In this document: piece after piece, positions 11,247 through 34,516 of the stretch
Position numbering within the stretch: position 1 is the stretch's first letter
How the letters are laid out: every line of letters begins with the position of its first letter
Source: Patescibacteria group bacterium
GTDB taxonomy: Bacteria > Patescibacteriota > Patescibacteriia > JAHIZJ01
Direction: 5' to 3'
Length of the DNA stretch: 64,000 nucleotides
Assembly (NCBI GenBank): GCA_028714495.1
Contig: JAQTMH010000003.1
Span: 72,496-136,495 of the forward strand
Notes under the pieces: model-generated
Database searches by the model: none
The model's input: only the letters and a program-made list of their open reading frames with translations
What the model was told of the DNA's origin: nothing
Made by a program: the position numbers and the translations under genes

Positions 11247-11636
11247 GGGGATGTCCAACATCGACGGGTAGCCCATTCAAAAACCGGCCAATCAGAGCTC
11301 CAGAACTCTGTCAAAATCTGGAAAAACGACAAATGCCAAGTCGACTTTCGCTAAACTGAAGAATGCTTTCGCATCATTCAGTTTTGCGCCCGCTGTTGCC
11401 TAATAATCAACAGCCATCCGTTCTCTTGACTCCTGATAGGGAGATAACGGGTGTCAAATTATCAGGACGGACGATTTATCCGTTTCAGTAAGTCGTTATC
11501 GGGCTATGAAGCTAGAATGAAGAGGGCTTTTGTCTGTCTTGACCCTTTTCATTCGAATCAATCGAGATAGACTATGTTGGTAGAAGGTTTTTGGAAAACT
11601 ATCCAGACAGGGGTGAAAGGCCCCTCATCTCCACCA
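11247..11636 (+). ncRNA. ssrA: tmRNA (ssrA), one-piece
   Basis: Begins GGGGAUGUCCAACAUCGACGGG (compare E. coli GGGGCUGAUUCUGGAUUCGACGGG). The acceptor stem GGGGAUG pairs with CAUCUCC, giving the G3:U wobble, and the RNA ends CCACCA at 11631-11636. A T-arm-like AGGGG-UGAAAGG-CCCCU is present. A candidate tag reading frame ends ...FAPAVA then UAA UAA at 11401-11406. Located 6 nt after smpB. Confidence 0.75.
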
Positions 11637-23031: not shown

Positions 23032-23937
23032 TTAGAGACTAGGCCGGGTGTCTCGGAGATATTCCATGAAGTACTGGGCATCTCGAGTACAACCCTTGGG
23101 CAGTCGTGGAACATCGCGGCACAGCACTGGCCGACCCGAGCATTCGCCCACTGCCTGCCAGAGCTTGATGCTCTGATCCAGCACAAACCTGGAAAAATCA
23201 ATCACGCAGTCAGTCGGAATCGAAGCGCCGCTGATCGGATCGCCGAACGGCAGGCAATACGGCAAAGCCACTTCTGGCTCGCACGGAATCACCTGGCTAT
23301 CAACCCGACGACCTGCGGTCCTCCCGGATAAAGGAACGCCGACATAAAAGTCCCGCTCGCAGACCCAATCAACTACAGCTGGGTACTCGCGCACACCGAC
23401 CAGCTCCACCCATGGATGCTTGGCCAGAAGCTGGTTTTCCGGCCGGCCAATGATTATCCCGACGATGACTTGACTGACCACATAGCCATTTTCCCGCATT
23501 AGTTCGGTTATCCGAAGCAGGGTGCCGCCTGAATAGCAACCGTCGTCAACCAGTGAAATCGGACGACCCTTGGGTAAAGATCTGATTTGGTCAACTAATG
23601 ACTCGAAGCCGGCACGACGCGATTCGCCTAGAATCTGGGTCGTGCTGATATCAGCCACGCGGTTGCACTCCAGATGATAGGGCGTCTGGTTGTAGATCTG
23701 GTCGATCGAGACAACGATCGTTCCGGCGGCTCGGGCAGCAATCGCGGCTTGCAGTTTTCCGCTCAAATCAGCCAGTTCGATAAGTTCAAGCGGCCGAAAG
23801 ATCGTTCGCAGATAGCCAAGCAGCTCCTGCTGGAGGGTCCGGAAAAAGTCCGAACTCGGACAGCTGAAGCCAACACGCTCGGCCCATCTGCGCATGAGGA
23901 ATTCCAGATCCTCGGTTACGAGGTAGGGTGGCTTCAT
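23032..23937 (-). CDS. Type-I phosphoribosyltransferase-like protein (PRPP-binding motif) with N- and C-terminal extensions. GC-rich.
   Basis: PISLVDDGCYSGGTLLRI matches the VLLVDD..TGGT PRPP loop. 301 aa. About 58% GC. 4-bp overlap with the upstream gene. Confidence 0.5.
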   Translation of the reverse strand: MKPPYLVTEDLEFLMRRWAERVGFSCPSSDFFRTLQQELLGYLRTIFRPLELIELADLSGKLQAAIAARAAGTIVVSIDQIYNQTPYHLECNRVADISTTQILGESRRAGFESLVDQIRSLPKGRPISLVDDGCYSGGTLLRITELMRENGYVVSQVIVGIIIGRPENQLLAKHPWVELVGVREYPAVVDWVCERDFYVGVPLSGRTAGRRVDSQVIPCEPEVALPYCLPFGDPISGASIPTDCVIDFSRFVLDQSIKLWQAVGECSGRPVLCRDVPRLPKGCTRDAQYFMEYLRDTRPSL

Positions 23938-24773
23938 GCTCTCCTCCTTTTCCCTAAGGGTTTCGTGGAAATCCGCTGTAGGATTTCCAGAGCTCCAGCT
24001 GTGATCGGCTCCGTAGCCACAAAGTCAGCGACCGCCTGTAATTCAGCGGCAGCATTGCTGACAGCGCAAAGTAGGTCTACATGTCCTAAGAGCCTGGCGT
24101 CGCTCCTGCCATCGCCAATGGCGATCACCCTGTATCCACGATACTTCCGCCGTAGCACGGGAACGGCAAGCTCTTTGTCTAACCCGGCACTTGATAGAAT
24201 CAGCACACCACATTCAGCATTGGCATCGATGTCCACCAACTCGGTTATTCCCAGTCTATCGAGAACCACTTTCACGGTCCCGACCACGCTGGGATAAGCT
24301 CCATAATCAGGAGTCAGCTGGTTTGTCCAGACATGCAGGCCAAAGCCACAGAGACGGAATGGATTGATGACAATCATCGTGCCTGACCGCGCATCTAGCC
24401 CGCGTTGGTTCGACAGGAGATCAAGGTAGTATTCCTCAGTCAGGGCGAAGTCTGGAAAAGCGCTCCGGAGTGAAGATATAATCAGCTGCTTGACCGAATG
24501 CCAGCCGATTACCTGCTGTCGAGTAAGTAGGTGACTGCCGGACAGCGTCGAGACAATGGCTCCTTTTTCACTGACGATCGGACCGGTAAAACCGAATATC
24601 CCCATCCAGCGCCGAAGCGGCTCATACGGAGTATCCGAGTTTAGCCCGAAAAGATCGCCCGCCTCCATCATCTGTCGAACCAATAGTTTGAACGCGTCTA
24701 GCTGGATTGTCGGCTGATAATCCCGACCGATAAGACTCATGTCGAGATCGCAGAGAATCAGTCTGGGTCTCAT
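23934..24773 (-). CDS. HAD-superfamily phosphatase (HAD-IIB / Cof-like). GC-rich.
   Basis: LILCDLDMSL (DxD motif I), IAIGDGRSDARLL (motif IV). 279 aa. Confidence 0.65.
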   Translation of the reverse strand: MRPRLILCDLDMSLIGRDYQPTIQLDAFKLLVRQMMEAGDLFGLNSDTPYEPLRRWMGIFGFTGPIVSEKGAIVSTLSGSHLLTRQQVIGWHSVKQLIISSLRSAFPDFALTEEYYLDLLSNQRGLDARSGTMIVINPFRLCGFGLHVWTNQLTPDYGAYPSVVGTVKVVLDRLGITELVDIDANAECGVLILSSAGLDKELAVPVLRRKYRGYRVIAIGDGRSDARLLGHVDLLCAVSNAAAELQAVADFVATEPITAGALEILQRISTKPLGKRRRA

Positions 24774-25783
24774 ATGGCCACCTCAGCCAGCGAAGAGATT
24801 AGGCGACCGGCCTGTTCCTGCATGGCTTCGATCAGCCAGACCCGTTCAGGATCTAGACAATAGTCACAACGGCAGGCGGCATAGGCACTGTAGTAGACCG
24901 CGCAGCACAATTCATAGAGCTGAGGCGTAAATATCCCCGCCTCAATCATCAGTTGCCGTGCCCTTTTGATTCTGCGCAAGGCGCCAAGATGGAATACAGA
25001 TCCCACAGTCTTTCTGATCTCCAATTCCTTGCGTCTGAGCGAGGCTTCGAGAGCGGCTAGGTCAACTGCGATGTTTCCGTCCGCCAAGCGCTCTTTGGAC
25101 CAAGGCAACGCCATCTTCGGGTCAATGAATCTGACCCGTGGCTGGTCAAGCGATTCGCTAACCAGCACATTGATAGCGACATTATCTTTCAGCGCCATCG
25201 AAGAAGACCAGCGTTCGAAAAACCAGGGAAAACGCTTTTGCAGCCGATCCAGCGCTGGGTTCAATCCGGTCATTTTCGCCCTTTCCAGATTTACCCGAAA
25301 CGCGCTCAGGCATTCCTGGAAAAACGTCTCTTGATCGTCTTGATTGCCGCGACTGGTCAAACTGTAGATCATTCTCAGCTTGTCAATCACCTGGCCGACG
25401 ATGTTGCCGATCTGAGATTGGCGTCGCTGGATGATTGGATGGTGACACGGCAGTGTTTCAAGCCATTCGCACAGGTCCAGGCAAATCGCCTCAAGCGTCC
25501 GTTCCCCCGCCACTTCCAGAAACAGCACTCCTTGATCATCCGTTTGGTTGACGAGTCGAAAATCAGGCAGAAACTCACCATATCGATCACCCAGCCGTGC
25601 CTGAAGAGTCCGATAAGCAGCCACATCGCCATTCAAGATGTCCAGCCGGCCGGCCTTCACCACGCCCCGGACCAGAAATGTGTCAGCGCCAGAAGCACCC
25701 TCTTGCCTGTCAAATGTCATCAAGCTGACTGCCGCTGATGCCGAACCAATCAAACCCTGCTTTGCTAAACCCAAGAATTCCAT
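24770..25783 (-). CDS. Hypothetical protein, possibly a small-molecule kinase of the APH/choline-kinase fold (weak). GC-rich.
   Basis: ALKDNVAINVL (D-x4-N), RFIDPKMA...DLAALE, reminiscent of the HGDxxxxN / IDxE.A / DLA motifs. RBS GGAGGGGAG. 337 aa. Confidence 0.35.
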   Translation of the reverse strand: MEFLGLAKQGLIGSASAAVSLMTFDRQEGASGADTFLVRGVVKAGRLDILNGDVAAYRTLQARLGDRYGEFLPDFRLVNQTDDQGVLFLEVAGERTLEAICLDLCEWLETLPCHHPIIQRRQSQIGNIVGQVIDKLRMIYSLTSRGNQDDQETFFQECLSAFRVNLERAKMTGLNPALDRLQKRFPWFFERWSSSMALKDNVAINVLVSESLDQPRVRFIDPKMALPWSKERLADGNIAVDLAALEASLRRKELEIRKTVGSVFHLGALRRIKRARQLMIEAGIFTPQLYELCCAVYYSAYAACRCDYCLDPERVWLIEAMQEQAGRLISSLAEVAI

Positions 25784-25939
25784 GGTCTCCCCTCCTCGTT
25801 TGTTGGTCAGTTTTCAAAGAGCCATTATAGTCAATGAGTGACTAGCAAATTTATTCGAGCCGTTTCCTTTAGTCTTTCATCAAATCAATGCTTCAGGTAT
25901 TCAAGGGAATTTAGTATATATAATCCAGTTTGTCAATGC

Positions 25940-27058
25940 TTAAGAAACCAAAGCATTTTTCTGCAATATTATGGCTTGTTTTAACACCTCGAAACTGGCT
26001 GGCCTCAGTTCCCAAATCACGCACAATTTACCATCGCTATTGGCGCTGATCATCTCCAGAACCGTCTTGGCTGATTTGAAAACAAATCCGACTGGAATGT
26101 GGTCGTCAATTACCACATCCCTGACGATTTGCCGCTTGTACCAAAAATCCGCTTTGGCTTTTTTGAGCTGATCCGGGCTGGCTTCTTTCGTAAATTCTTT
26201 GGTTGTCAGAGAATCAGACAGGTGCACTGCTTTTATCCTTTTTAATATTTCGGGATTATCAGCAAGTTCCTTTTTAATTCTCTGGTCAATCGAATCCGGT
26301 CTATCACCTGCTTCTTGCCCTAACACCGCAACACTGTGTGCTGTATCAAAAGTAACACCTACTTCATTTAAGTCACGGTTTATAAATATTTCCCTAAAAT
26401 CCGCCAGCCGCCGCACGCCCCTATCAATCGCACTGCCGTTTTCAAGCGTTAATAGTTTGGCAAAACCAGAATCGCGCTTTATCAAGTCTTCGGTAAATTG
26501 CCGAACTGCGCTGATCACTGCCTGATCAGAATATTTCCGATCGCCAAATAAAATATCATCATAATCAATCTGATTCGCGTGCCAAGTAGCAACCCTGGCA
26601 TCCAGCTCGCCAGCGATATCTAACTCTCTAGTTAAACGTTCAATCATTACTTCTGGTTTATCGCCGCTGAAATATTTTCGGACATTGGCTGGAGTATAAA
26701 AAGTACGCAGCAATCTCGCCTGATCTTGCTTGTAAAAAGGTATCCAGCTGGCCCAGTCTGATAAGTGGACAGTTAAATTTCCCTGAAATCTGATTTTCTT
26801 CAGCGGATTTGGATCAAAATTCTCGGTAAAACCGATAAAATCCTGGATCCGAATTTCCATTCCGTCAAAGCCCTGTTCCAGGCACCAGTTTTCAATTCTC
26901 GACAAATCCCTGTTAAACTCCTTGATAATCAGTGAGTTGACTGACAACAGCTGAAATCTGGCCGACTTTTCTTTCTTCCAAAGCAAATCAAAGTCTGCTG
27001 GCGGTTTGAGCGCCTTGAACTTTTCCTCGATTAATTTGTCTTTGCTGGTTAATTCCAT
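25940..27058 (-). CDS. Xylose-isomerase-like TIM-barrel protein (sugar-phosphate isomerase/epimerase or AP-endonuclease-2 family)
   Basis: Motifs VHLSDWA, VATWHANQ, LLTLEN, VTFDTAHS, VHLSDS. 372 aa. Confidence 0.55.
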   Translation of the reverse strand: MELTSKDKLIEEKFKALKPPADFDLLWKKEKSARFQLLSVNSLIIKEFNRDLSRIENWCLEQGFDGMEIRIQDFIGFTENFDPNPLKKIRFQGNLTVHLSDWASWIPFYKQDQARLLRTFYTPANVRKYFSGDKPEVMIERLTRELDIAGELDARVATWHANQIDYDDILFGDRKYSDQAVISAVRQFTEDLIKRDSGFAKLLTLENGSAIDRGVRRLADFREIFINRDLNEVGVTFDTAHSVAVLGQEAGDRPDSIDQRIKKELADNPEILKRIKAVHLSDSLTTKEFTKEASPDQLKKAKADFWYKRQIVRDVVIDDHIPVGFVFKSAKTVLEMISANSDGKLCVIWELRPASFEVLKQAIILQKNALVS

Positions 27059-27063
27059 ACAGG

Positions 27064-27822
27064 TTATTTGCTTAAAAGTTCAACCGCCCGTAAAGCAACC
27101 TTGATAGCTTTATCCACGCCTTGATCTGCCTCGGCTGAAGTCTCCAATTTATAAATTAAACCGGGGTCTTTCGCAATCTCGTCCAGCGGTTCAGTGGTAT
27201 TGACCGATAAAACCGTGCCGGCTTTTAAACCTCGCAGCTGGGCTAGCGTAAACACAGCCGAGCATTCCATTTCCGAACTCACTAGCTCGCCTTTTTTATA
27301 TTCAGGCAAATCCATCAGTTTTAAGAAATTATCAGTTGGCTCGTAAAATGAATCGTGCGTGCGGTTTGTGCCGATGAAATATTTAATATTTAATTCTTCA
27401 GCTGCTTGCTTCAAAGCCCGAAACACCTCAGGGTCGGGTTTGGCTTCGAATTCCTCGCCGACATATTCTTTGGTGGTGCCTTCCTGTCGGATCGCCTTAT
27501 CTGGAATAATTAAGTTCCCTGGAACAATGGTTTTCTTCAGGGCGCCGCAAGTGCCAATACGGATGAATATCTTGGCGCCTACCTTAGCCAGCTCCTCAAC
27601 GGCAATGGCCGCCGAGGGAGAACCAATGCCCGTCGAAGTGGCGGAAATTGGAATGCCTTTATATTTACCCGTGTAGGTCAAAAATTCCCTGTTAAAAACA
27701 ACCTCACGGGATTCGTCCCAATATTCGGCGATTCTCCTAACTCGAGCTGGATCGCCTGGAATCAAAACAATTTCGGCGATATCGCCTGGTTTAATTCTCA
27801 GATGTGGTTGTAAATTTTCCAT
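27064..27822 (-). CDS. Nucleoside phosphorylase of the PNP/UDP family-1 (DeoD/Udp-like)
   Basis: IPGDPARV...GIPISATSTGIGSPSAAIAVEEL...RIGTCGAL...SSEMECSA. 252 aa. Confidence 0.8.
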   Translation of the reverse strand: MENLQPHLRIKPGDIAEIVLIPGDPARVRRIAEYWDESREVVFNREFLTYTGKYKGIPISATSTGIGSPSAAIAVEELAKVGAKIFIRIGTCGALKKTIVPGNLIIPDKAIRQEGTTKEYVGEEFEAKPDPEVFRALKQAAEELNIKYFIGTNRTHDSFYEPTDNFLKLMDLPEYKKGELVSSEMECSAVFTLAQLRGLKAGTVLSVNTTEPLDEIAKDPGLIYKLETSAEADQGVDKAIKVALRAVELLSK

Positions 27823-27840
27823 TGGTTTGCTTTATTTATT

Positions 27841-28136
27841 AAAAAACTCTCATTCCTCGACAAGTTATTAAAAATAATAACTAGCTAAGGAACGAGAGTT
27901 TACTCCCGCGGTCCCATCCTTATTTCCGGTCTTTACCTTAAATCAGGCAACAACCAGACACTTATTTCAAGCTTCACGATGCGTGACCACCGTTCCCGGT
28001 TTTGACCGGGACTGCTTAAGAGGTGTGTTCAATGGTTTTCTGGGCCTGGCTTCCACTGTCCCAAGCTCTCTATTCAGCCAGAAATGGCCATTTACTATGC
28101 CTCTTTGTTAGCGCATTTGAATTAAATTATCAAGGT
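27841..28136 (-). promoter_or_regulatory. T-box riboswitch leader, His-specific (specifier CAC, antiterminator bulge UGGG), with its own promoter and an intrinsic terminator directly before the nucleoside phosphorylase gene
   Basis: Stem I UGGCUGAAUAGAGAGC... and specifier loop GAA-CAC-A are visible on the minus strand. The T-box sequence AAUAAGGAUGGGACCGCGGGAG is the reverse complement of 27907-27920. The terminator is AAACUCUCGUUCCU...AGGAAUGAGAGUUU plus U6 at 27841-27898, with UAGCUAGUUAUUAUUUUUAAUAACUUGUCG intervening. The antiterminator alternative is AAGGA[UGGGACC]GCGGGAG/CUCUC/UCCUU. The promoter is TTGACT, 18 nt, TAATCT. Confidence 0.75.
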
Positions 28137-28188
28137 AAATATAAGATTACACCATTGGCCTATTTCTAGTCAAATATCGGTTGTGGAT

Positions 28189-28220
28189 AAAAAAAGCCGT
28201 TGAGCAAGTTACTCAACGGC
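28189..28220 (-). terminator. Rho-independent terminator of hisS, overlapping its stop codon
   Basis: gccgttgag-caagtta-ctcaacggc followed by U7 on the minus strand. Confidence 0.55.
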
Positions 28221-29600
28221 TTCAAGAAGTGAACGAATGTGCGAAATCAATTGGTCGCGCGGAACCGAGTGCTGTTTGCCTGCTGCGCCGAATGTGGTCC
28301 GGAGGTTCTTCACGGAAGCTTCGCCTCGGCTGAGCTCATCAGGACCGACCACGATCGCGATCGGTATCCGCTGAACATCGGCGTATTTGAACTGACGGCC
28401 GATGCGCGTTTCCTCACCCATGTAGAGCTCAGTATTCAGGCCCTCTCGTCTAAGCTCCGTGGCCAGCTGCTGGTAGACACCCAACTGGTTTTGATCAAAG
28501 ACGGTGACCAGAACCTGGGTTTTGCTAGGCGCTGTTCCAACCAAGCCGAGCTGTTCCAGGGCGGCGAAGAGCCGATCTACGCCGATCGAAGCACCGGTAG
28601 CAGGAATGCTGGTTTCGCTGAACCGGCCGATAAGTCCATCAAACCGTCCGCCGGAAAACACGCTGCCCCAGGTCGGCAAATCCAGAAGCCTCGTCTCAAA
28701 CACCGGACCGGTGTAGTAAGCCAGACCTCTGGCAATTGACAGGTCGATGATGAAACGCTCGGGCGGGATGCCTTGGGCTTTGAGTCCGGACAGAATCTGT
28801 TCCAGCTCGACGATCCCTTCGTCAACGGCCGAGCAGCCATTGAAGAAGCGCCTGAGCTGTTCGATCGTCTCAACCGGACTTCCTCCTGAAATGCCGACGA
28901 ATTCCATAATCCGATCAGCAATTTCCGGAGCCAAACCGATGCAGCGAGCACCGGCAGGTACTTCTCTCTGATCCACGCCTTCAGGCCCTTGCTTGGTCAG
29001 GGTGGCTTTGACTTCTTCGAGGCCGACTCTCTCGATCTTGTCTAGGGTCCGGAAGATGTCCGTGGCCCAGAAAGGATCGAGGCCCAAGAAAACCATCAAA
29101 GCGTTCAGGATCTTGCGGTTGCTGAAACGGATCAGGAAACGGGTAAGCCCCAGCTCAACCAAAGTGTCGTGGATGATGGCGATGATTTCAGTGTCAGCGG
29201 CCATTGAGCTGGTGCCGACAGTGTCAATGTCGAATTGCACGAATTCGCGGAAGCGTCCAGGTGCCGGTTCATCGCCGCGCCAGACCGGTCCGACCACGTA
29301 CCGTTTGAACGGTCGGGGCAGATCCGGGTACAGGGCGACAAACCGAGCCAGAGGTATGGTGTGATCGAAACGCAGTCCGGCTGGACGTCCTTCAGGATCA
29401 TCAAATCGGAAGATCTTAAGTTCGCTTGCATCAGTCTCTTCGCCGAGGAGAATCCTACGGTCTTCAATCGCCGGCGTCTCAATCGGTACAAAGCCATAGC
29501 GTTCATAAACGCGACGGATCTTCTCGATTAACGCTTGCCTGGCAATCATTTGAGCCGGCAGGTAATCTCGAAGTCCGCGCAGAAGTCGTGGTTCAATCAT
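28209..29600 (-). CDS. hisS: Histidyl-tRNA synthetase (class II). GC-rich. The start is taken at the internal Met so as not to overlap tRNA-His.
   Basis: RGLRDYLP, FREFVQFDID (motif 2), GGRFDGL, GASIGVDRL (motif 3), an anticodon-binding C-terminus. AGGTGA sits 10 nt upstream of ATG 29600. The ORF-track start at 29687 would overlap the tRNA. Confidence 0.85.
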   Translation of the reverse strand: MIEPRLLRGLRDYLPAQMIARQALIEKIRRVYERYGFVPIETPAIEDRRILLGEETDASELKIFRFDDPEGRPAGLRFDHTIPLARFVALYPDLPRPFKRYVVGPVWRGDEPAPGRFREFVQFDIDTVGTSSMAADTEIIAIIHDTLVELGLTRFLIRFSNRKILNALMVFLGLDPFWATDIFRTLDKIERVGLEEVKATLTKQGPEGVDQREVPAGARCIGLAPEIADRIMEFVGISGGSPVETIEQLRRFFNGCSAVDEGIVELEQILSGLKAQGIPPERFIIDLSIARGLAYYTGPVFETRLLDLPTWGSVFSGGRFDGLIGRFSETSIPATGASIGVDRLFAALEQLGLVGTAPSKTQVLVTVFDQNQLGVYQQLATELRREGLNTELYMGEETRIGRQFKYADVQRIPIAIVVGPDELSRGEASVKNLRTTFGAAGKQHSVPRDQLISHIRSLLEAVE

Positions 29601-29637
29601 CTTCTGATCACCTGCCTTTCTTGATACGCCAGAAAAG

Positions 29638-29716
29638 ATGGGGGGCCGGACGGGAATCGAACCCGCGACCTCTTGATCCACAGTCAAGCGCTCTGACCAA
29701 CTGAGCTACCGACCCC
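29638..29716 (-). tRNA. tRNA-His (anticodon GUG) with genomically encoded G-1, C73 and CCA
   Basis: GGGGGUCGGUAGCUCAGUUGGUCAGAGCGCUUGACUGUGGAUCAAGAGGUCGCGGGUUCGAUUCCCGUCCGGCCCCCCA. Cloverleaf checked by hand. G-1:C73. Confidence 0.9.
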
Positions 29717-29736
29717 CAACACCACGAAGAGCCAAA

Positions 29737-29812
29737 AGACTGGGGCGAGACGGGAATCGAACCCGCGACCTCTTGATCCACAGTCAAGCGCTCTGACCAA
29801 CTGAGCTACTCG
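29737..29812 (-). tRNA. Second tRNA with a GUG anticodon. Its 60-nt core is identical to tRNA-His but the acceptor stem differs (GGGCGAG/CUCGCCC). It keeps C73 but has C at -1 and no encoded CCA.
   Basis: CGGGCGAGUAGCUCAG...GGUUCGAUUCCCGUCUCGCCC-C. The interior is identical to the upstream tRNA-His. Confidence 0.7.
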
Positions 29813-29858
29813 CCCGTTTTCCCGGCCTGAGTTTGTAACAGACCGGGAACTTGTGCAC

Positions 29859-31478
29859 CTAGAGCGCCGCCGCAACCGCTTGCCGCAAAGCGCCGCTCTG
29901 GATCAGCTTCAACATCTTCTGATGGTCAGCCATGAGGAATCGATCATCATTCATCTCCTCGATGGCCGACCGGATCACCTGAAGGGCGACACTGGTACCG
30001 CGACCGAGCTTCGGATCATTGAGCGACTTCTGAGTCAGAGTAATGCCCTGGGCCGCTCCGATGAGCTCCCACGCGATCACCGCGAAAGCCAGCTCGATCA
30101 CCCGACGCATGTGCCGAGCCGAGATTGAAGCCATGCTGACATGATCTTCCTGGCCAGCTGAGGTCGGGATCGAAATCGCCTTGGCTGGATAGCACATTAC
30201 TGCGCATTCAGCGACTAGGGCAGCCACCGCGTATTGGGCAATCATTAGCCCGGTATTGAGGTCTGACTCACCAGCCAAATCAGCTGGCAAGCCATAGCTC
30301 GATTCCGGGTTCAGCAGAGCGTACAAACGAGAGTTCGAGATGTTAGCCAGGCACTGGGCGGCCAGTTTCATCTGCTCACTGGCATGCCCGAGCGGTTCTC
30401 CGTGGAAATTGCCACAAGACACTGCGACAAACTGCTCGCCAACTTGGAAGATCAGCGGATTGTCAGTCGCCGAGTTTGCCTCGATTGACAGAGCTTCCTT
30501 TGCCCGATCAATGATTTCTCTGACCGGGCCGGCCACTTGCGGATAGCACCGGTAAGAATAGGCGTCCTGAACGCGCGGCACCTTCAGATCATTCGGCTGA
30601 GACTTCACATGCTCAGCTGGCAAATCGACCAGTCGACAAGCATGGGTCATCCGCTCTGAACCAGCAGTCAGCTGACGAATCTCTGCTGCCACCTGGATCT
30701 GACCCGGATAGGGTCTGGCCAGGTGAACCCGTTCGTCAAACGCAGCTGTCTCACCGCGGATCGCTTCGAGCGAGAGCGCAGCTGCCAAATTCGAGTACCA
30801 AAGCAGAGACTCAAGGTCAGCCTGTCCCAGAATTGCCTGGGCCAGAATGAAAGTCGAACCATTGGTCAGAGCCATGGCTTCCTTGCCTTTGAGAACGATC
30901 GGCTGCAGATCAGCGGCAATCAGCGCATACTTGGCCGTCATGAATTCACCCTGATACCAGGCACGCTGTTCTTCCGATCCCATGAGCGTTGCCGAGACAT
31001 GCGCCAGTGGACAGAGATCGCCACTGGCACCGACTGAGCCGATCTGCGGAACATAGGGAATCACGCCGGCATTGTAGAGATTGACCAGACTCGCGCAGAG
31101 TTCAGGCCGTACGCCGGAATGCCCCTTGGCAAAGGAATTGGCCCGCAATACCAGTGCCAGTCTGACTACCTCGTCTGGGAACGGTTCGCCAAAACCAACG
31201 CAGTGAGCCGGAATGTAGTGCCTCTGATACGCGGTGATTTCTTCACCGGGAATCATGACGCACTTGCGACTGCCGCAGCCAGTGTTGAAACCATAGACCG
31301 CGTGATCTTGGCCGTAAGCGACCAGACCATCACGAAACTGACCAATCTCCTGCATTCTTTCCCCGGTGATTTCAACCCGGGGAAAAAGGTGAACGCCGGT
31401 AGCATCATCCTCACCCCGGGCTGCCAGAAGACAATCGGGCAAACCGAGATTTTCGCCATCGAGCCTGATATCGCGCAT
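29859..31478 (-). CDS. MIO-dependent aromatic amino acid ammonia-lyase / aminomutase family (HAL/PAL-like). GC-rich.
   Basis: GSVGASGDLCPLAHV (the Ala-Ser-Gly MIO triad), YGFNTGCG, NPLIFQVGEQ. The start is at the internal Met preceded by AAAGGAGA. The position equivalent to the HAL Ser-His selectivity pair reads Ala-His. Confidence 0.7.
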   Translation of the reverse strand: MRDIRLDGENLGLPDCLLAARGEDDATGVHLFPRVEITGERMQEIGQFRDGLVAYGQDHAVYGFNTGCGSRKCVMIPGEEITAYQRHYIPAHCVGFGEPFPDEVVRLALVLRANSFAKGHSGVRPELCASLVNLYNAGVIPYVPQIGSVGASGDLCPLAHVSATLMGSEEQRAWYQGEFMTAKYALIAADLQPIVLKGKEAMALTNGSTFILAQAILGQADLESLLWYSNLAAALSLEAIRGETAAFDERVHLARPYPGQIQVAAEIRQLTAGSERMTHACRLVDLPAEHVKSQPNDLKVPRVQDAYSYRCYPQVAGPVREIIDRAKEALSIEANSATDNPLIFQVGEQFVAVSCGNFHGEPLGHASEQMKLAAQCLANISNSRLYALLNPESSYGLPADLAGESDLNTGLMIAQYAVAALVAECAVMCYPAKAISIPTSAGQEDHVSMASISARHMRRVIELAFAVIAWELIGAAQGITLTQKSLNDPKLGRGTSVALQVIRSAIEEMNDDRFLMADHQKMLKLIQSGALRQAVAAAL

Positions 31479-31789
31479 GACCGTTTCTCCTTTTGTGAGA
31501 AGCCCGCGAGCGACTGGTTTCGTTCTAGCAGTACGAGATTCCGTTCTCGGCCATAGACTGACCTCCTCGTGTTTGGATGGTTTGTTTGCGTAGTGGGTAA
31601 TTACAAGATAATCCTGCCCGCTTAACAAGCAAGATTATTGTCAATGTACTAGCTTTTCCAAGAATAACTCATCTTATCACGGGCCCAGAATCACTGTCAA
31701 TTAGCCCTTATGCACATAGCTTACTACATAATATTCTCAATAAAAAAGGCCGGGGGTTCATACACCCTGACAAAGTACTGGGTACGATA

Positions 31790-31987
31790 TTAAACTGATT
31801 TAATAACCTGCACTCTCCCCACTTCCCCGGTTTCCAGGCGTACCTTGATCCCGTGCGGATGATTTGGCGAACTCGTCAAAATGTCTTTGACTACGCCTTC
31901 AGTTAGTCGTCCAGTGCGTTGATCCTGCTTTTGCACGATCTCCACGCGCAAGCCAGGATAGATGTTATCGCGGATTTGATTGTCCAT
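31790..31987 (-). CDS. YwbE-like small protein (DUF2196 / TIGR03833 family)
   Basis: PGLRVEIVQKQDQRTGRLTEGVVKDILTSSPNHPHGIKVRLETGEVGRVQ. 65 aa. Confidence 0.5.
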   Translation of the reverse strand: MDNQIRDNIYPGLRVEIVQKQDQRTGRLTEGVVKDILTSSPNHPHGIKVRLETGEVGRVQVIKSV

Positions 31988-32028
31988 CGTATAAATTTAT
32001 TGTTAAATCAAGAAAAACGGCACTTAGT

Positions 32029-33257: not shown

Positions 33258-34289
33258 TTAGGAAAAACTTAACTCACCCGGATATACCCAAATTTCCTTG
33301 AAGTTTTTTAGAGGTATTAGATCGGATTTCACAACCTCATGATCCTGGTTTTTAATTTGCTCAAACTGCTTGGGCGATAGAATTCGGTCAATATAACCGT
33401 CTCCCCTCTTTTCTAACACGCCAAAACCGGTCCAGAATTTCGCTACTGAATTTGAGGTTGTGCCGATTGGAATGGAATTATACTTGGGTAGCGGCGTGGC
33501 GGATAAATCAACCTTGCCTAATCCGCGTATCGCTTCATGAACCCGGGATAACCGGCAATAACCGTCATGGGCAATCGGGCCCATTTTTATTTTCTCCTGC
33601 TTCTCGTTCTCGTTCAGCCGCTTCCAATCTTCAGCGCCTTGCCACTGCAGATTAAGATTGGACGTTGCCTCTCTTTTTTTCTTGCGTTCTTCAGGCCAAT
33701 CTTTATATTCTTGCTTTACTTTATCTATAAAAGGCTCAAGTTCGTCGAGATATTCTTTTTCATTAGGATAAAGCTCGGCAAACGATCTTAATTCCAGCTT
33801 GATATTTCCCGGCAAATGCTCCAGAAATTCACCAAGTAATTTATTAAACGATTGGCGGTAGATTAAACAGTCTTTTTCCGGTATATTGCTCTGTCGTTTC
33901 ATAATTGAGGGATGAGCTGCCCAGTAGGTCATGATTACTCCAGGCTCATAAGCCTGCACAATGAGAGTAATGTATTTCAACATATAGCAAATATTAAAAA
34001 ATTCCGCCCAATCAACCTCCGGGGAGGTCTCAAAACTCCAGAGTTTATACCCGCCGAAAAAATAGGTAGTATTAATCGGCAGATGTTTAGTCACCGCATA
34101 GTGGATAGATTCTTTCAGCTCTTTAACGTAATCTTCACCGACCTTCCATTTGCGGAATTTTTTTGACATGAGACAGCGATAAATAAATGCTTCTGGTCCG
34201 TTTTTATCCAAAAATTCCCGGTCCGCTGTTTGCGGTTCGGTTTTGGAAGAATTTACTTTTTGACTTTTTAAATAATCCTCGACGGTCAT
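33258..34289 (-). CDS. Hypothetical protein (about 343 aa). The ORF-track N-terminus overlaps tRNA-Gln, so the start is moved to the Met at 34289.
   Basis: MTVEDYLKSQ... No recognisable motifs. Confidence 0.45.
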   Translation of the reverse strand: MTVEDYLKSQKVNSSKTEPQTADREFLDKNGPEAFIYRCLMSKKFRKWKVGEDYVKELKESIHYAVTKHLPINTTYFFGGYKLWSFETSPEVDWAEFFNICYMLKYITLIVQAYEPGVIMTYWAAHPSIMKRQSNIPEKDCLIYRQSFNKLLGEFLEHLPGNIKLELRSFAELYPNEKEYLDELEPFIDKVKQEYKDWPEERKKKREATSNLNLQWQGAEDWKRLNENEKQEKIKMGPIAHDGYCRLSRVHEAIRGLGKVDLSATPLPKYNSIPIGTTSNSVAKFWTGFGVLEKRGDGYIDRILSPKQFEQIKNQDHEVVKSDLIPLKNFKEIWVYPGELSFS

Positions 34290-34323
34290 TTTCAAAAAAA
34301 GTCCTTTCAATATAGCGAGCTTA

Positions 34324-34394
34324 GCTCCGGGGCCTGGACTCGAACCAGGATACCCGCCTCCAAAGGGCGGTGTCCTACCATTAGACGACCCCGG
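34324..34394 (-). tRNA. tRNA-Gln (anticodon UUG)
   Basis: UCCGGGGUCGUCUAAUGGUAGGACACCGCCCUUUGGAGGCGGGUAUCCUGGUUCGAGUCCAGGCCCCGGAG. U1:A72, G73. Anticodon loop CUUUGGA. Confidence 0.85.
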
Positions 34395-34516
34395 AGCAAA
34401 ACTCATTATAAGTTTTTTATTTCTATCGCCTCGAAACGATAGCGCTGACATCCGACCTAATCAAAAAAGGGCGCATCAACCCTATCCTATCAAACATTCG
34501 CAAATATTTCAAATCC

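Follow-up and report, generated by a model that had tools for sequence, protein, structure and literature searches.

The G residue at position -1 (G-1) is treated as a near-universal identity mark of tRNA-His. In the canonical bacterial tRNA it is encoded, pairs with C73 and is kept through an aberrant cut by RNase P, and reviews name only a small alpha-proteobacterial clade as the bacterial exception (PMC3245924). The stretch of DNA analysed here, called the window below, comprises 64,000 nucleotides (nt) of contig JAQTMH010000003.1 (assembly GCA_028714495.1) from a Patescibacteria group bacterium, a tiny uncultured member of the Candidate Phyla Radiation (CPR). It contains two tandem tRNA-His genes, one with and one without an encoded G-1, upstream of hisS, the gene for histidyl-tRNA synthetase (HisRS). 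This raises the question of how tRNA-His precursors with different 5' ends are matured and charged beside the same synthetase. From the structures of the genes, their conservation and synteny, and the covariation of HisRS motifs with tRNA type, we consider it on balance probable that both genes make working tRNA-His and that the adjacent HisRS charges both, using the G-1-less copy (copy A) directly without G-1.

The two genes and the positions that distinguish them are given below in the order of transcription.

29742..29815, minus strand: tRNA-His(GUG) copy A, +1 to 73, acceptor stem GGGCGAG/CTCGCCC, C73 (ARAGORN, Rfam, sequence reading)
29816..29816, minus strand: position -1 of copy A, a C (direct sequence reading)
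29717..29741, minus strand: spacer from copy A to G-1 of copy B, 25 nt, with a final TTG before G-1 that makes the flank TTGG ahead of G+1
29639..29716, minus strand: tRNA-His(GUG) copy B with G-1, acceptor stem GGGTCGG/CCGGCCC (U4.G69) (ARAGORN, Rfam, sequence reading)

ARAGORN, which was used for tRNA calling, reported both as tandem tRNA-His(gtg) genes on the minus strand (29639-29715 and 29742-29815). In covariance scoring with the Rfam tRNA model RF00005 (gathering score 29), copy A reached 74.4 bits and copy B 72.1 bits, both more than 40 bits above the gathering score, and the G-1-less copy, for which a preliminary description of the locus had proposed scoring of this kind as a check, passes the threshold. 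The anticodon of both is GUG, within a 7-nt loop (CUGUGGA), and they share a 9-nt D-loop and an identical 61-nt body (positions 7-66). Their five differences are confined to the acceptor pairs 4:69 (C:G in copy A, U.G in copy B), 5:68 (G:C versus C:G) and 6:67 (A:U versus G:C); the probability that five random differences would all land in the 14 acceptor-stem positions is about 1.3e-4. The tandem pair with an identical core and different acceptor stems, as first described, is thereby confirmed, with three differing pairs.

Copy B has G-1 at 29716, preceded by another G at -2, C73 at 29642 and an encoded CCA at 29641-29639, and is the canonical bacterial form of tRNA-His. An encoded G-1 able to pair with C73 is absent from copy A, where C at 29816 stands opposite C73, and the trailer past C73 reads AGTC, with no encoded CCA. 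Lacking G-1, copy A falls outside canonical bacterial tRNA-His. Direct reading of the sequence agrees with the preliminary description on the ends of both copies, including the GGGCGAG/CUCGCCC stem of copy A. Two details are corrected: the copies are separated by 25 nt rather than 20 nt, and because the genes lie on the minus strand the G-1-less copy, previously listed second, is the upstream one. An assembly artefact was rejected as the source of such arrays, which are present in five independent assemblies (NCBI, JGI, ENA, Logan). Weak Rfam matches near the genes (mir-2300, MIR6288, MIR5038, YrlA, nuoG) were chance or hairpin matches far under their gathering scores.

These ends suggest two routes of maturation. 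In copy B, G-1 would pair with C73 and RNase P would cut one base early, yielding a tRNA whose CCA is already encoded. The C-1 of copy A is unable to pair with C73, so that RNase P cleavage would presumably fall at the regular +1 site; the trailer would be removed after C73 and CCA added. Mature copy A would then be a G-1-less tRNA-His with a 7-bp acceptor stem and a free C73. Among the other tRNA genes of the window, those for Gly and Thr encode CCA and that for Gln, like copy A, does not, which implies that the organism must possess CCA addition.

Close relatives of the locus (L161-L168) were fetched through protein database and contig look-ups. All of them are syntenic with the window, with a lyase gene, a tRNA-His array, hisS, a His T-box, a phosphorylase gene and the ArgRS gene (the last not in L166), and the same lyase neighbour is found in L163-L168 and in L001, a locus with a related array. 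Their tRNA-His genes are as follows, with the identity of each HisRS to that of the window.

L161/L162, HisRS 83%: one copy with C-1, C73 and no CCA, then one with TTGG, C73 and CCA
L001, HisRS 70%: two G-1-less, CCA-less copies, then a copy with TTGG and CCA, broken by an N run
L163, HisRS 66%: array as in L161
L165, HisRS 64%: one G-1-less A73/U72 gene
L164, HisRS 62%: two G-1-less A73/U72 genes
L166, assembly GCA_964549245.1, HisRS 58%: two G-1-less A73/U72 genes
L168, assembly GCA_044868145.1, HisRS 57%: one G-1-less A73/U72 gene
L167, HisRS 56%: a G-1-less C73 gene and a G-1-less A73 gene in one array

L001 (CAZQLY010000001.1) is labelled 'uncultured Gammaproteobacteria' yet is syntenic with the window across the histidine cluster, and the label is doubtful; the third tRNA-His copy of this contig is interrupted by 100 N.

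In the four lineages that combine both kinds of gene (the window, L161/L162, L163 and L001), the G-1 copy always ends 19-38 nt 5' of the hisS start codon (4/4). Throughout the CPR clade, CCA is encoded in all four G-1 genes and in none of the 13 G-1-less genes. The G-1-less copies of this sub-clade all have C73, and four of the five have C at -1. These five copies carry four distinct acceptor stems, all perfectly paired, and show compensatory double changes at 7 of the 21 cloverleaf pairs with one broken cell. Such varied yet fully paired stems, together with the compensatory changes, show that the G-1-less copies are under selection as tRNAs.

The bodies of the genes do not follow the presence of G-1. 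Copy 2 of L161, which has G-1, is identical in body to copy 1 of L163, which has none, and copy 1 of L001 equals copy 3 over the part that the N run leaves readable. Acceptor stems vary among copies of one class, and the acceptor-stem sequence was rejected as a class marker, with copy 1 (no G-1) and copy 3 (G-1) of L001 sharing the same stem. Position-specific ends combined with homogenised interiors are the signature of gene conversion within an array, and the pair in the window may have originated by duplication and gene conversion of this kind, in which the gene ends stay specific to their position. Two further arrays show related arrangements. At 3840-4021 of L166, two G-1-less A73 tRNA-His genes have identical bodies and different acceptor stems, as in the window, and at 7770-7948 of L167 a C73 and an A73 gene adjoin, both G-1-less, of which the C73 copy has a D-stem mismatch and scores 54 bits.

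Gene conversion could also have produced copy A as a neutral or decaying by-product, that is, an older G-1-less gene whose body was overwritten by the canonical copy. This would account for copies A and B sharing a body but not their flanks, and for CCA tracking G-1 (4/4 versus 0/13), as expected if flanks are inherited by position; the low-scoring, mismatched copy 1 of L167 likewise fits decay. However, G-1-less copies have been retained in four lineages at a HisRS identity of only 66-83%, with acceptor stems that differ between lineages and are perfectly paired, and copy A outscores copy B (74.4 versus 72.1 bits). Small CPR genomes also rarely keep dead genes. Decay thus seems hard to reconcile with the conservation and compensatory change in these genes, and we regard it as improbable.

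The preliminary description had further raised the possibility that the second copy is a relic of mobile-element integration into a tRNA gene, with a duplicated attachment site. Integration at tRNA genes is generally marked by a tandem duplication of tRNA sequence, and the 28-32 kb block is richer in GC than its surroundings. Both copies, however, are full-length cloverleaves rather than 3' fragments, their acceptor differences fall on both strands of the stem and are compensatory, and no integrase lies nearby, the genes on either side being the lyase gene and hisS. Moreover, the array is syntenic in L001 and L161-L168, and its layout is conserved with compensatory changes in three lineages besides the window. 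Integration was therefore rejected as an origin of the pair and would be very surprising.

If both genes produce tRNAs, the synthetase has to be considered as the enzyme that would charge them.

28209..29600, minus strand: hisS, histidyl-tRNA synthetase, 463 aa (Pfam tRNA-synt_His and HGTP_anticodon; NCBIfam)

The hisS gene starts 38 nt past the CCA of copy B. Its product passes the NCBIfam hisS equivalog model TIGR00442 (355.9 bits, cut-off 286.75), and one NCBI protein, from a Patescibacteria group metagenome-assembled genome (MAG) by its annotation, has the same sequence (100% identity). The nearest solved HisRS structures by sequence are those of Nostoc, the Bacteroidetes-like entry 6NHI and the human cytoplasmic enzyme; the protein is not close to the Escherichia coli/Thermus thermophilus type and shares 39-41% identity with Rhodobacterales enzymes.

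In the T. thermophilus complex, the G-1 pocket is formed by Gly72'-Gly73' inside 71'RGGR74', and Arg115 and Arg122 of motif 2 also touch G-1, whereas in the Caulobacter HisRS, which serves a G-1-less tRNA, two Asp residues replace the pocket glycines (PMC4357726). The Caulobacter enzyme charges the G-1-less tRNA through the anticodon, with no gain from the addition of G-1 (PMC3064791). The window HisRS has D-P-E-G-R in place of D-R-G-G-R in this pocket, and its motif-2 loop reads R-G-D-E-P-A-P-G-R. In a family alignment, both motifs covary with the type of the neighbouring tRNA-His.

HisRS linked to G-1 genes and Chloroflexi members: pocket D-[HRY]-G-G-R, motif-2 loop [DE]-[RKN]-P-Q-[KR]-G-R
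A73 G-1-less HisRS members: pocket P-E-x-E, motif-2 loop D-K-P-x-[PK]-G-R
HisRS of the four C73-array lineages: pocket P-[ED]-G-R, motif-2 loop G-D-E-P-x-P-G-R

In the C73-array enzymes, the first pocket Gly is changed to Glu or Asp, Arg115 of motif 2 to Glu, and Gln117 to Ala, Ser or Gly. The pocket is half changed, with the E-G-R of the window standing between G-G-R of the G-1 type and E-x-E of the A73 type. Judged by these residues, the pocket and motif-2 loop of the window enzyme would mostly resemble those of G-1-independent enzymes. A neighbour-joining HisRS tree, which carries no support values, nests the four C73-array lineages within CPR lineages of the A73 G-1-less type and places L167, with its mixed array, near the base.

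A wider survey combined a HisRS genome scan (80 loci returned) with a metagenome scan (another 80) and yielded 68 tRNA-His genes beside hisS; in the JGI metagenome scan no relative exceeded 53% identity to the window HisRS. There is no encoded G-1 in 59 of the 68 genes. The largest group (44/68) has no G-1, G1:U72 and A73, while eight have no G-1, G1:C72 and C73, some of them apparently single genes in other CPR MAGs. Nine have G at -1, but only three of those form the G-1:C73 pair. The G1:U72/A73 genes without G-1 adjoin hisS in Acidobacteriota/Thermoanaerobaculia, Bacteroidota, Planctomycetota and other MAGs (L004-L031, L081-L160). Thus, the clade of the window HisRS is usually linked to G-1-less tRNA-His genes, and the identity set reported from a small clade of alpha-proteobacteria appears to be much more widespread and physically linked to its synthetase. 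Arrays were found in these two scans only in the window and L001.

On these grounds, a HisRS descended from a lineage that co-occurs with G-1-less tRNA-His genes would charge copy A directly, chiefly through the anticodon, as the Caulobacter enzyme does. Its remaining pocket Gly and Arg suggest that it can still accept the G-1 form, and both tRNAs would then serve translation. The preliminary description had assumed that the missing G-1 requires repair by a Thg1-like enzyme or else leaves copy A mischarged or uncharged. This premise is unsafe for a HisRS whose clade is mostly accompanied by G-1-less genes and whose motifs are mostly of the G-1-independent type, although Thg1-like addition itself stays a live alternative, given the C73 template in copy A.

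In that alternative, copy A would receive a G across from C73 through a Thg1-like 3'-5' nucleotidyltransferase whose gene lies in another part of the genome, so that all mature tRNA-His would carry G-1:C73 and HisRS would use it. C73, the template that archaeal- and bacterial-type Thg1 enzymes require (PMC3245924), is present in every G-1-less copy of the sub-clade, and the sub-clade HisRS keeps the pocket Gly-Arg, unlike its A73 sisters. L161, L163 and L001 keep the TTGG flank ahead of their G-1 copies, with the remaining spacer different, which shows that G-1 is under selection. Against such an enzyme, Thg1 homologues are sporadic in bacteria (PMC3245924), and none of the 40 window open reading frames (ORFs) of at least 180 aa, within these 64 kb, matched the Thg1 or Thg1C Pfam families (PF04446, PF14413). 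The encoded G-1 copy would also be redundant in its presence, and the altered first Gly, Arg115 and Gln117 positions resemble those of G-1-independent enzymes. CPR genomes, besides, are small. We therefore consider this alternative rather unlikely, if the strongest of the competitors.

Several observations nevertheless weigh against direct charging of copy A. In all four lineages the last copy keeps its G-2/G-1 flank and its CCA despite the drift of the spacer, so G-1 must have some role; were this role in recognition by HisRS, the enzyme would be expected to use the G-1-less copies poorly. The sub-clade HisRS alone keeps the Gly and Arg equivalent to Gly73' and Arg74' of T. thermophilus, and all G-1-less copies of the sub-clade carry the C73 on which an archaeal-type Thg1-like enzyme depends. 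In addition, the neighbour-joining tree of HisRS has no support values, and the analysis spans 64 kb, beyond which a second HisRS, further tRNA-His genes or a Thg1-like gene may lie.

Another possible role for copy A is suggested by the element that follows hisS.

27848..28118, minus strand: His T-box leader with specifier GAA-CAC-A, bulge AGGAUGGGACC (UGGG) and a terminator hairpin at 27897-27848 (Rfam)
27064..27822, minus strand: PNP_UDP_1, uridine-phosphorylase-like gene, the first gene under the T-box (Pfam, NCBIfam, synteny)

The leader matches Rfam RF00230 over its full length with 90.6 bits (E=1.9e-19), narrowly below the gathering score of 93, and the orthologous leaders of L163 and L161 reach 101.4 and 96.3 bits. 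The CAC specifier, the bulge AGGAUGGGACC and a hairpin followed by TTTTT are kept in seven of the eight loci, L162 lacking the terminator. Despite the sub-threshold score, these features identify the leader as a His T-box-like element. The preliminary description was right about an adjacent His T-box, but the element lies downstream of hisS and precedes the phosphorylase-like gene and further genes, and would thus control a different operon.

This operon (23032-28118, minus strand) consists of PNP_UDP_1, a xylose-isomerase-like TIM barrel gene, a 337-aa orphan, a Cof-type HAD hydrolase and a PRTase-like gene. The T-box with PNP occurs in six relatives (L001, L161, L163, L164, L167 and L168), and the HAD gene in the three that have enough downstream sequence (L164, L167 and L168). 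From its leader and gene content, it looks like an uncharacterised histidine-starvation-induced operon of CPR bacteria. On the ENA contig of L162 (2331-2973), whose HisRS is the same as that of L161, the T-box terminator is lost and the T-box is followed by a very different tRNA-His (G-1, GTGGCTG..., C73, CCA), which may reflect a chimeric assembly or a strain variant.

The proximity of the T-box permits a division of labour in which copy B is the main translational tRNA and copy A, with its unpaired C73, is the preferred ligand of the T-box; less efficient charging might further make copy A an early sensor of histidine shortage. The UGGG bulge could form a four-base helix with CCCA-3', including the free C73, and UGGG and the CAC specifier are found in the window and all seven relatives. 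TBDB skips discriminator matching for His T-boxes, the discriminator normally being paired with G-1; without G-1, the tRNA would be bound by a T-box in the usual manner. Genes of both kinds are also conserved beside the T-box operon. However, copies A and B are identical in the anticodon, D and T arms and in the C73-CCA end, leaving only G-1 to discriminate between them, and a tRNA that could never be charged would keep the T-box permanently on. The bulge stays UGGG even in L164 and L168, where A73 is the discriminator of the adjoining tRNA-His genes, so the bulge base does not covary with the neighbouring tRNA, and no covariation of the UGGN base with the adjacent discriminator was found among these loci. 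A search of the literature on the base at this position of His T-boxes found nothing specific. An effector role of copy A in the T-box therefore remains speculative, and we think it improbable as an account of the pair. Were it true, a dedicated sensor isodecoder would solve the paired-discriminator problem of His T-boxes; in either case, the locus makes directly testable how these elements read a tRNA whose discriminator base is paired.

Direct charging of both tRNAs by the adjacent HisRS fits an arrangement in which the genes are expressed together. The elements flanking tRNA A, tRNA B and hisS are listed below.

31671..31700, minus strand: promoter-like site TTGACA-18-TAAGAT (with TG), upstream of the lyase gene (consensus scan match only)
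29859..31478, minus strand: histidine-ammonia-lyase-like gene with the ASG motif of an aromatic amino acid lyase (Pfam Lyase_aromatic, 498 bits)
28193..28223, minus strand: terminator-like hairpin of 14 pairs followed by a T-run, overlapping the end of hisS (consensus scan)

The lyase-like gene, tRNA A, tRNA B and hisS follow one another in this order, all on the minus strand, and the lyase-like gene ends 43 nt before copy A. Its top NCBIfam models are those of histidine ammonia-lyase, with scores below the equivalog cut-offs. A consensus scan found no promoter-like sites between the lyase gene and the tRNAs. The four genes probably form one transcription unit, for which the site at 31671..31700 is a candidate start.

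The rest of the window contains housekeeping genes, including those for an IleRS-like protein, ArgRS, RecO, LepA, MurJ and FtsEX, and a transfer-messenger RNA (tmRNA). The tmRNA gene at 11247-11636 (plus strand) matches Rfam with 104.7 bits, although ARAGORN does not report a tmRNA there, and SmpB and tmRNA lie near the histidine cluster in relatives. The GC content is 0.54-0.55 across the lyase-tRNA-hisS block (28000-32000) compared with 0.44-0.49 on both sides, which could reflect old horizontal acquisition or composition constraints. A 397-aa ORF at 33258-34451 (minus strand), with no family match, overlaps tRNA-Gln(UUG) at 34324-34395, and its real start must therefore be further in; positions 19349-20234 of L001 are homologous to this region. 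The minus strand of the window (1-64000) carries 37 of the 41 ORFs of at least 180 aa, including every plausible large ORF, and such strict co-directionality is typical of small streamlined genomes.

Taken with its relatives, the locus appears to show a tRNA identity rule in the course of change. It adds G-1-less genes that keep C73 and coexist stably with a canonical G-1 gene in an array fused to hisS, and sister lineages show every intermediate state with matching changes in the G-1 pocket of HisRS. From the gene and enzyme sequences we infer that the clade as a whole is partway through a turnover in tRNA-His identity, between C73 and A73 and between presence and absence of G-1. The literature searched described neither hard-wired G-1 and G-1-less isodecoders in one hisS-fused array nor neighbouring lineages that form a series of graded identity states accompanied by matching changes in HisRS, and it gave nothing specific on G-1-less tRNA-His in CPR, Acidobacteria or Bacteroidetes. 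The lineages provide a natural series for how a synthetase-tRNA identity rule changes without a lethal intermediate, by way of tandem duplicates, and candidate HisRS/tRNA-His pairs with unusual recognition for the engineering of orthogonal pairs.

Among known systems, copy B shares G-1, C73, G1:C72 and CCA with canonical bacterial tRNA-His, whereas copy A has neither G-1 nor CCA and the partner HisRS is not of the E. coli/T. thermophilus type and has no equivalents of Arg115 and Gln117 in motif 2. The closest parallel to copy A is the alpha-proteobacterial tRNA-His (Wang et al. 2007; Ardell & Andersson 2006; Yuan et al. 2011, PMC3064791), which likewise has no encoded G-1. The two also share the same broad HisRS family, a 9-nt D-loop and, probably, anticodon-driven charging, and the Gly-Gly pocket of the window HisRS is altered as well, if only in part. 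In contrast to that system, copy A has C73 and G1:C72 instead of A73 and G1:U72, a set present in L164, L165, L166 and L168, and so is not a member of the alpha-proteobacterial class, though it probably works like it. The half-changed pocket (E-G-R rather than D-D), the adjoining canonical gene with G-1, C73 and CCA, the fusion of the array to the hisS operon and the CPR host also set the locus apart.

With respect to maturation dependent on Thg1 or Thg1-like proteins (TLP) (PMC3061083, PMC3245924), copy A, G-1-less with C73, corresponds to the preferred substrate of archaeal-type enzymes, but the window ORFs contain no Thg1-like gene; the bacteria with Thg1-like enzymes described so far also encode G-1 (PMC3061083, PMC3245924). 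Acanthamoeba and Trypanosoma live without G-1, with a HisRS co-adapted to its loss (PMC3561963, PMC4338351). Plant mitochondria contain tRNA-His with and without G-1 (PMC2995067), so that two 5'-end forms coexist, as here. However, in plant mitochondria and the G-1-less eukaryotes there is one gene that is alternatively processed, or a single form, whereas in the CPR lineages described here the two forms are encoded by separate, conserved genes.

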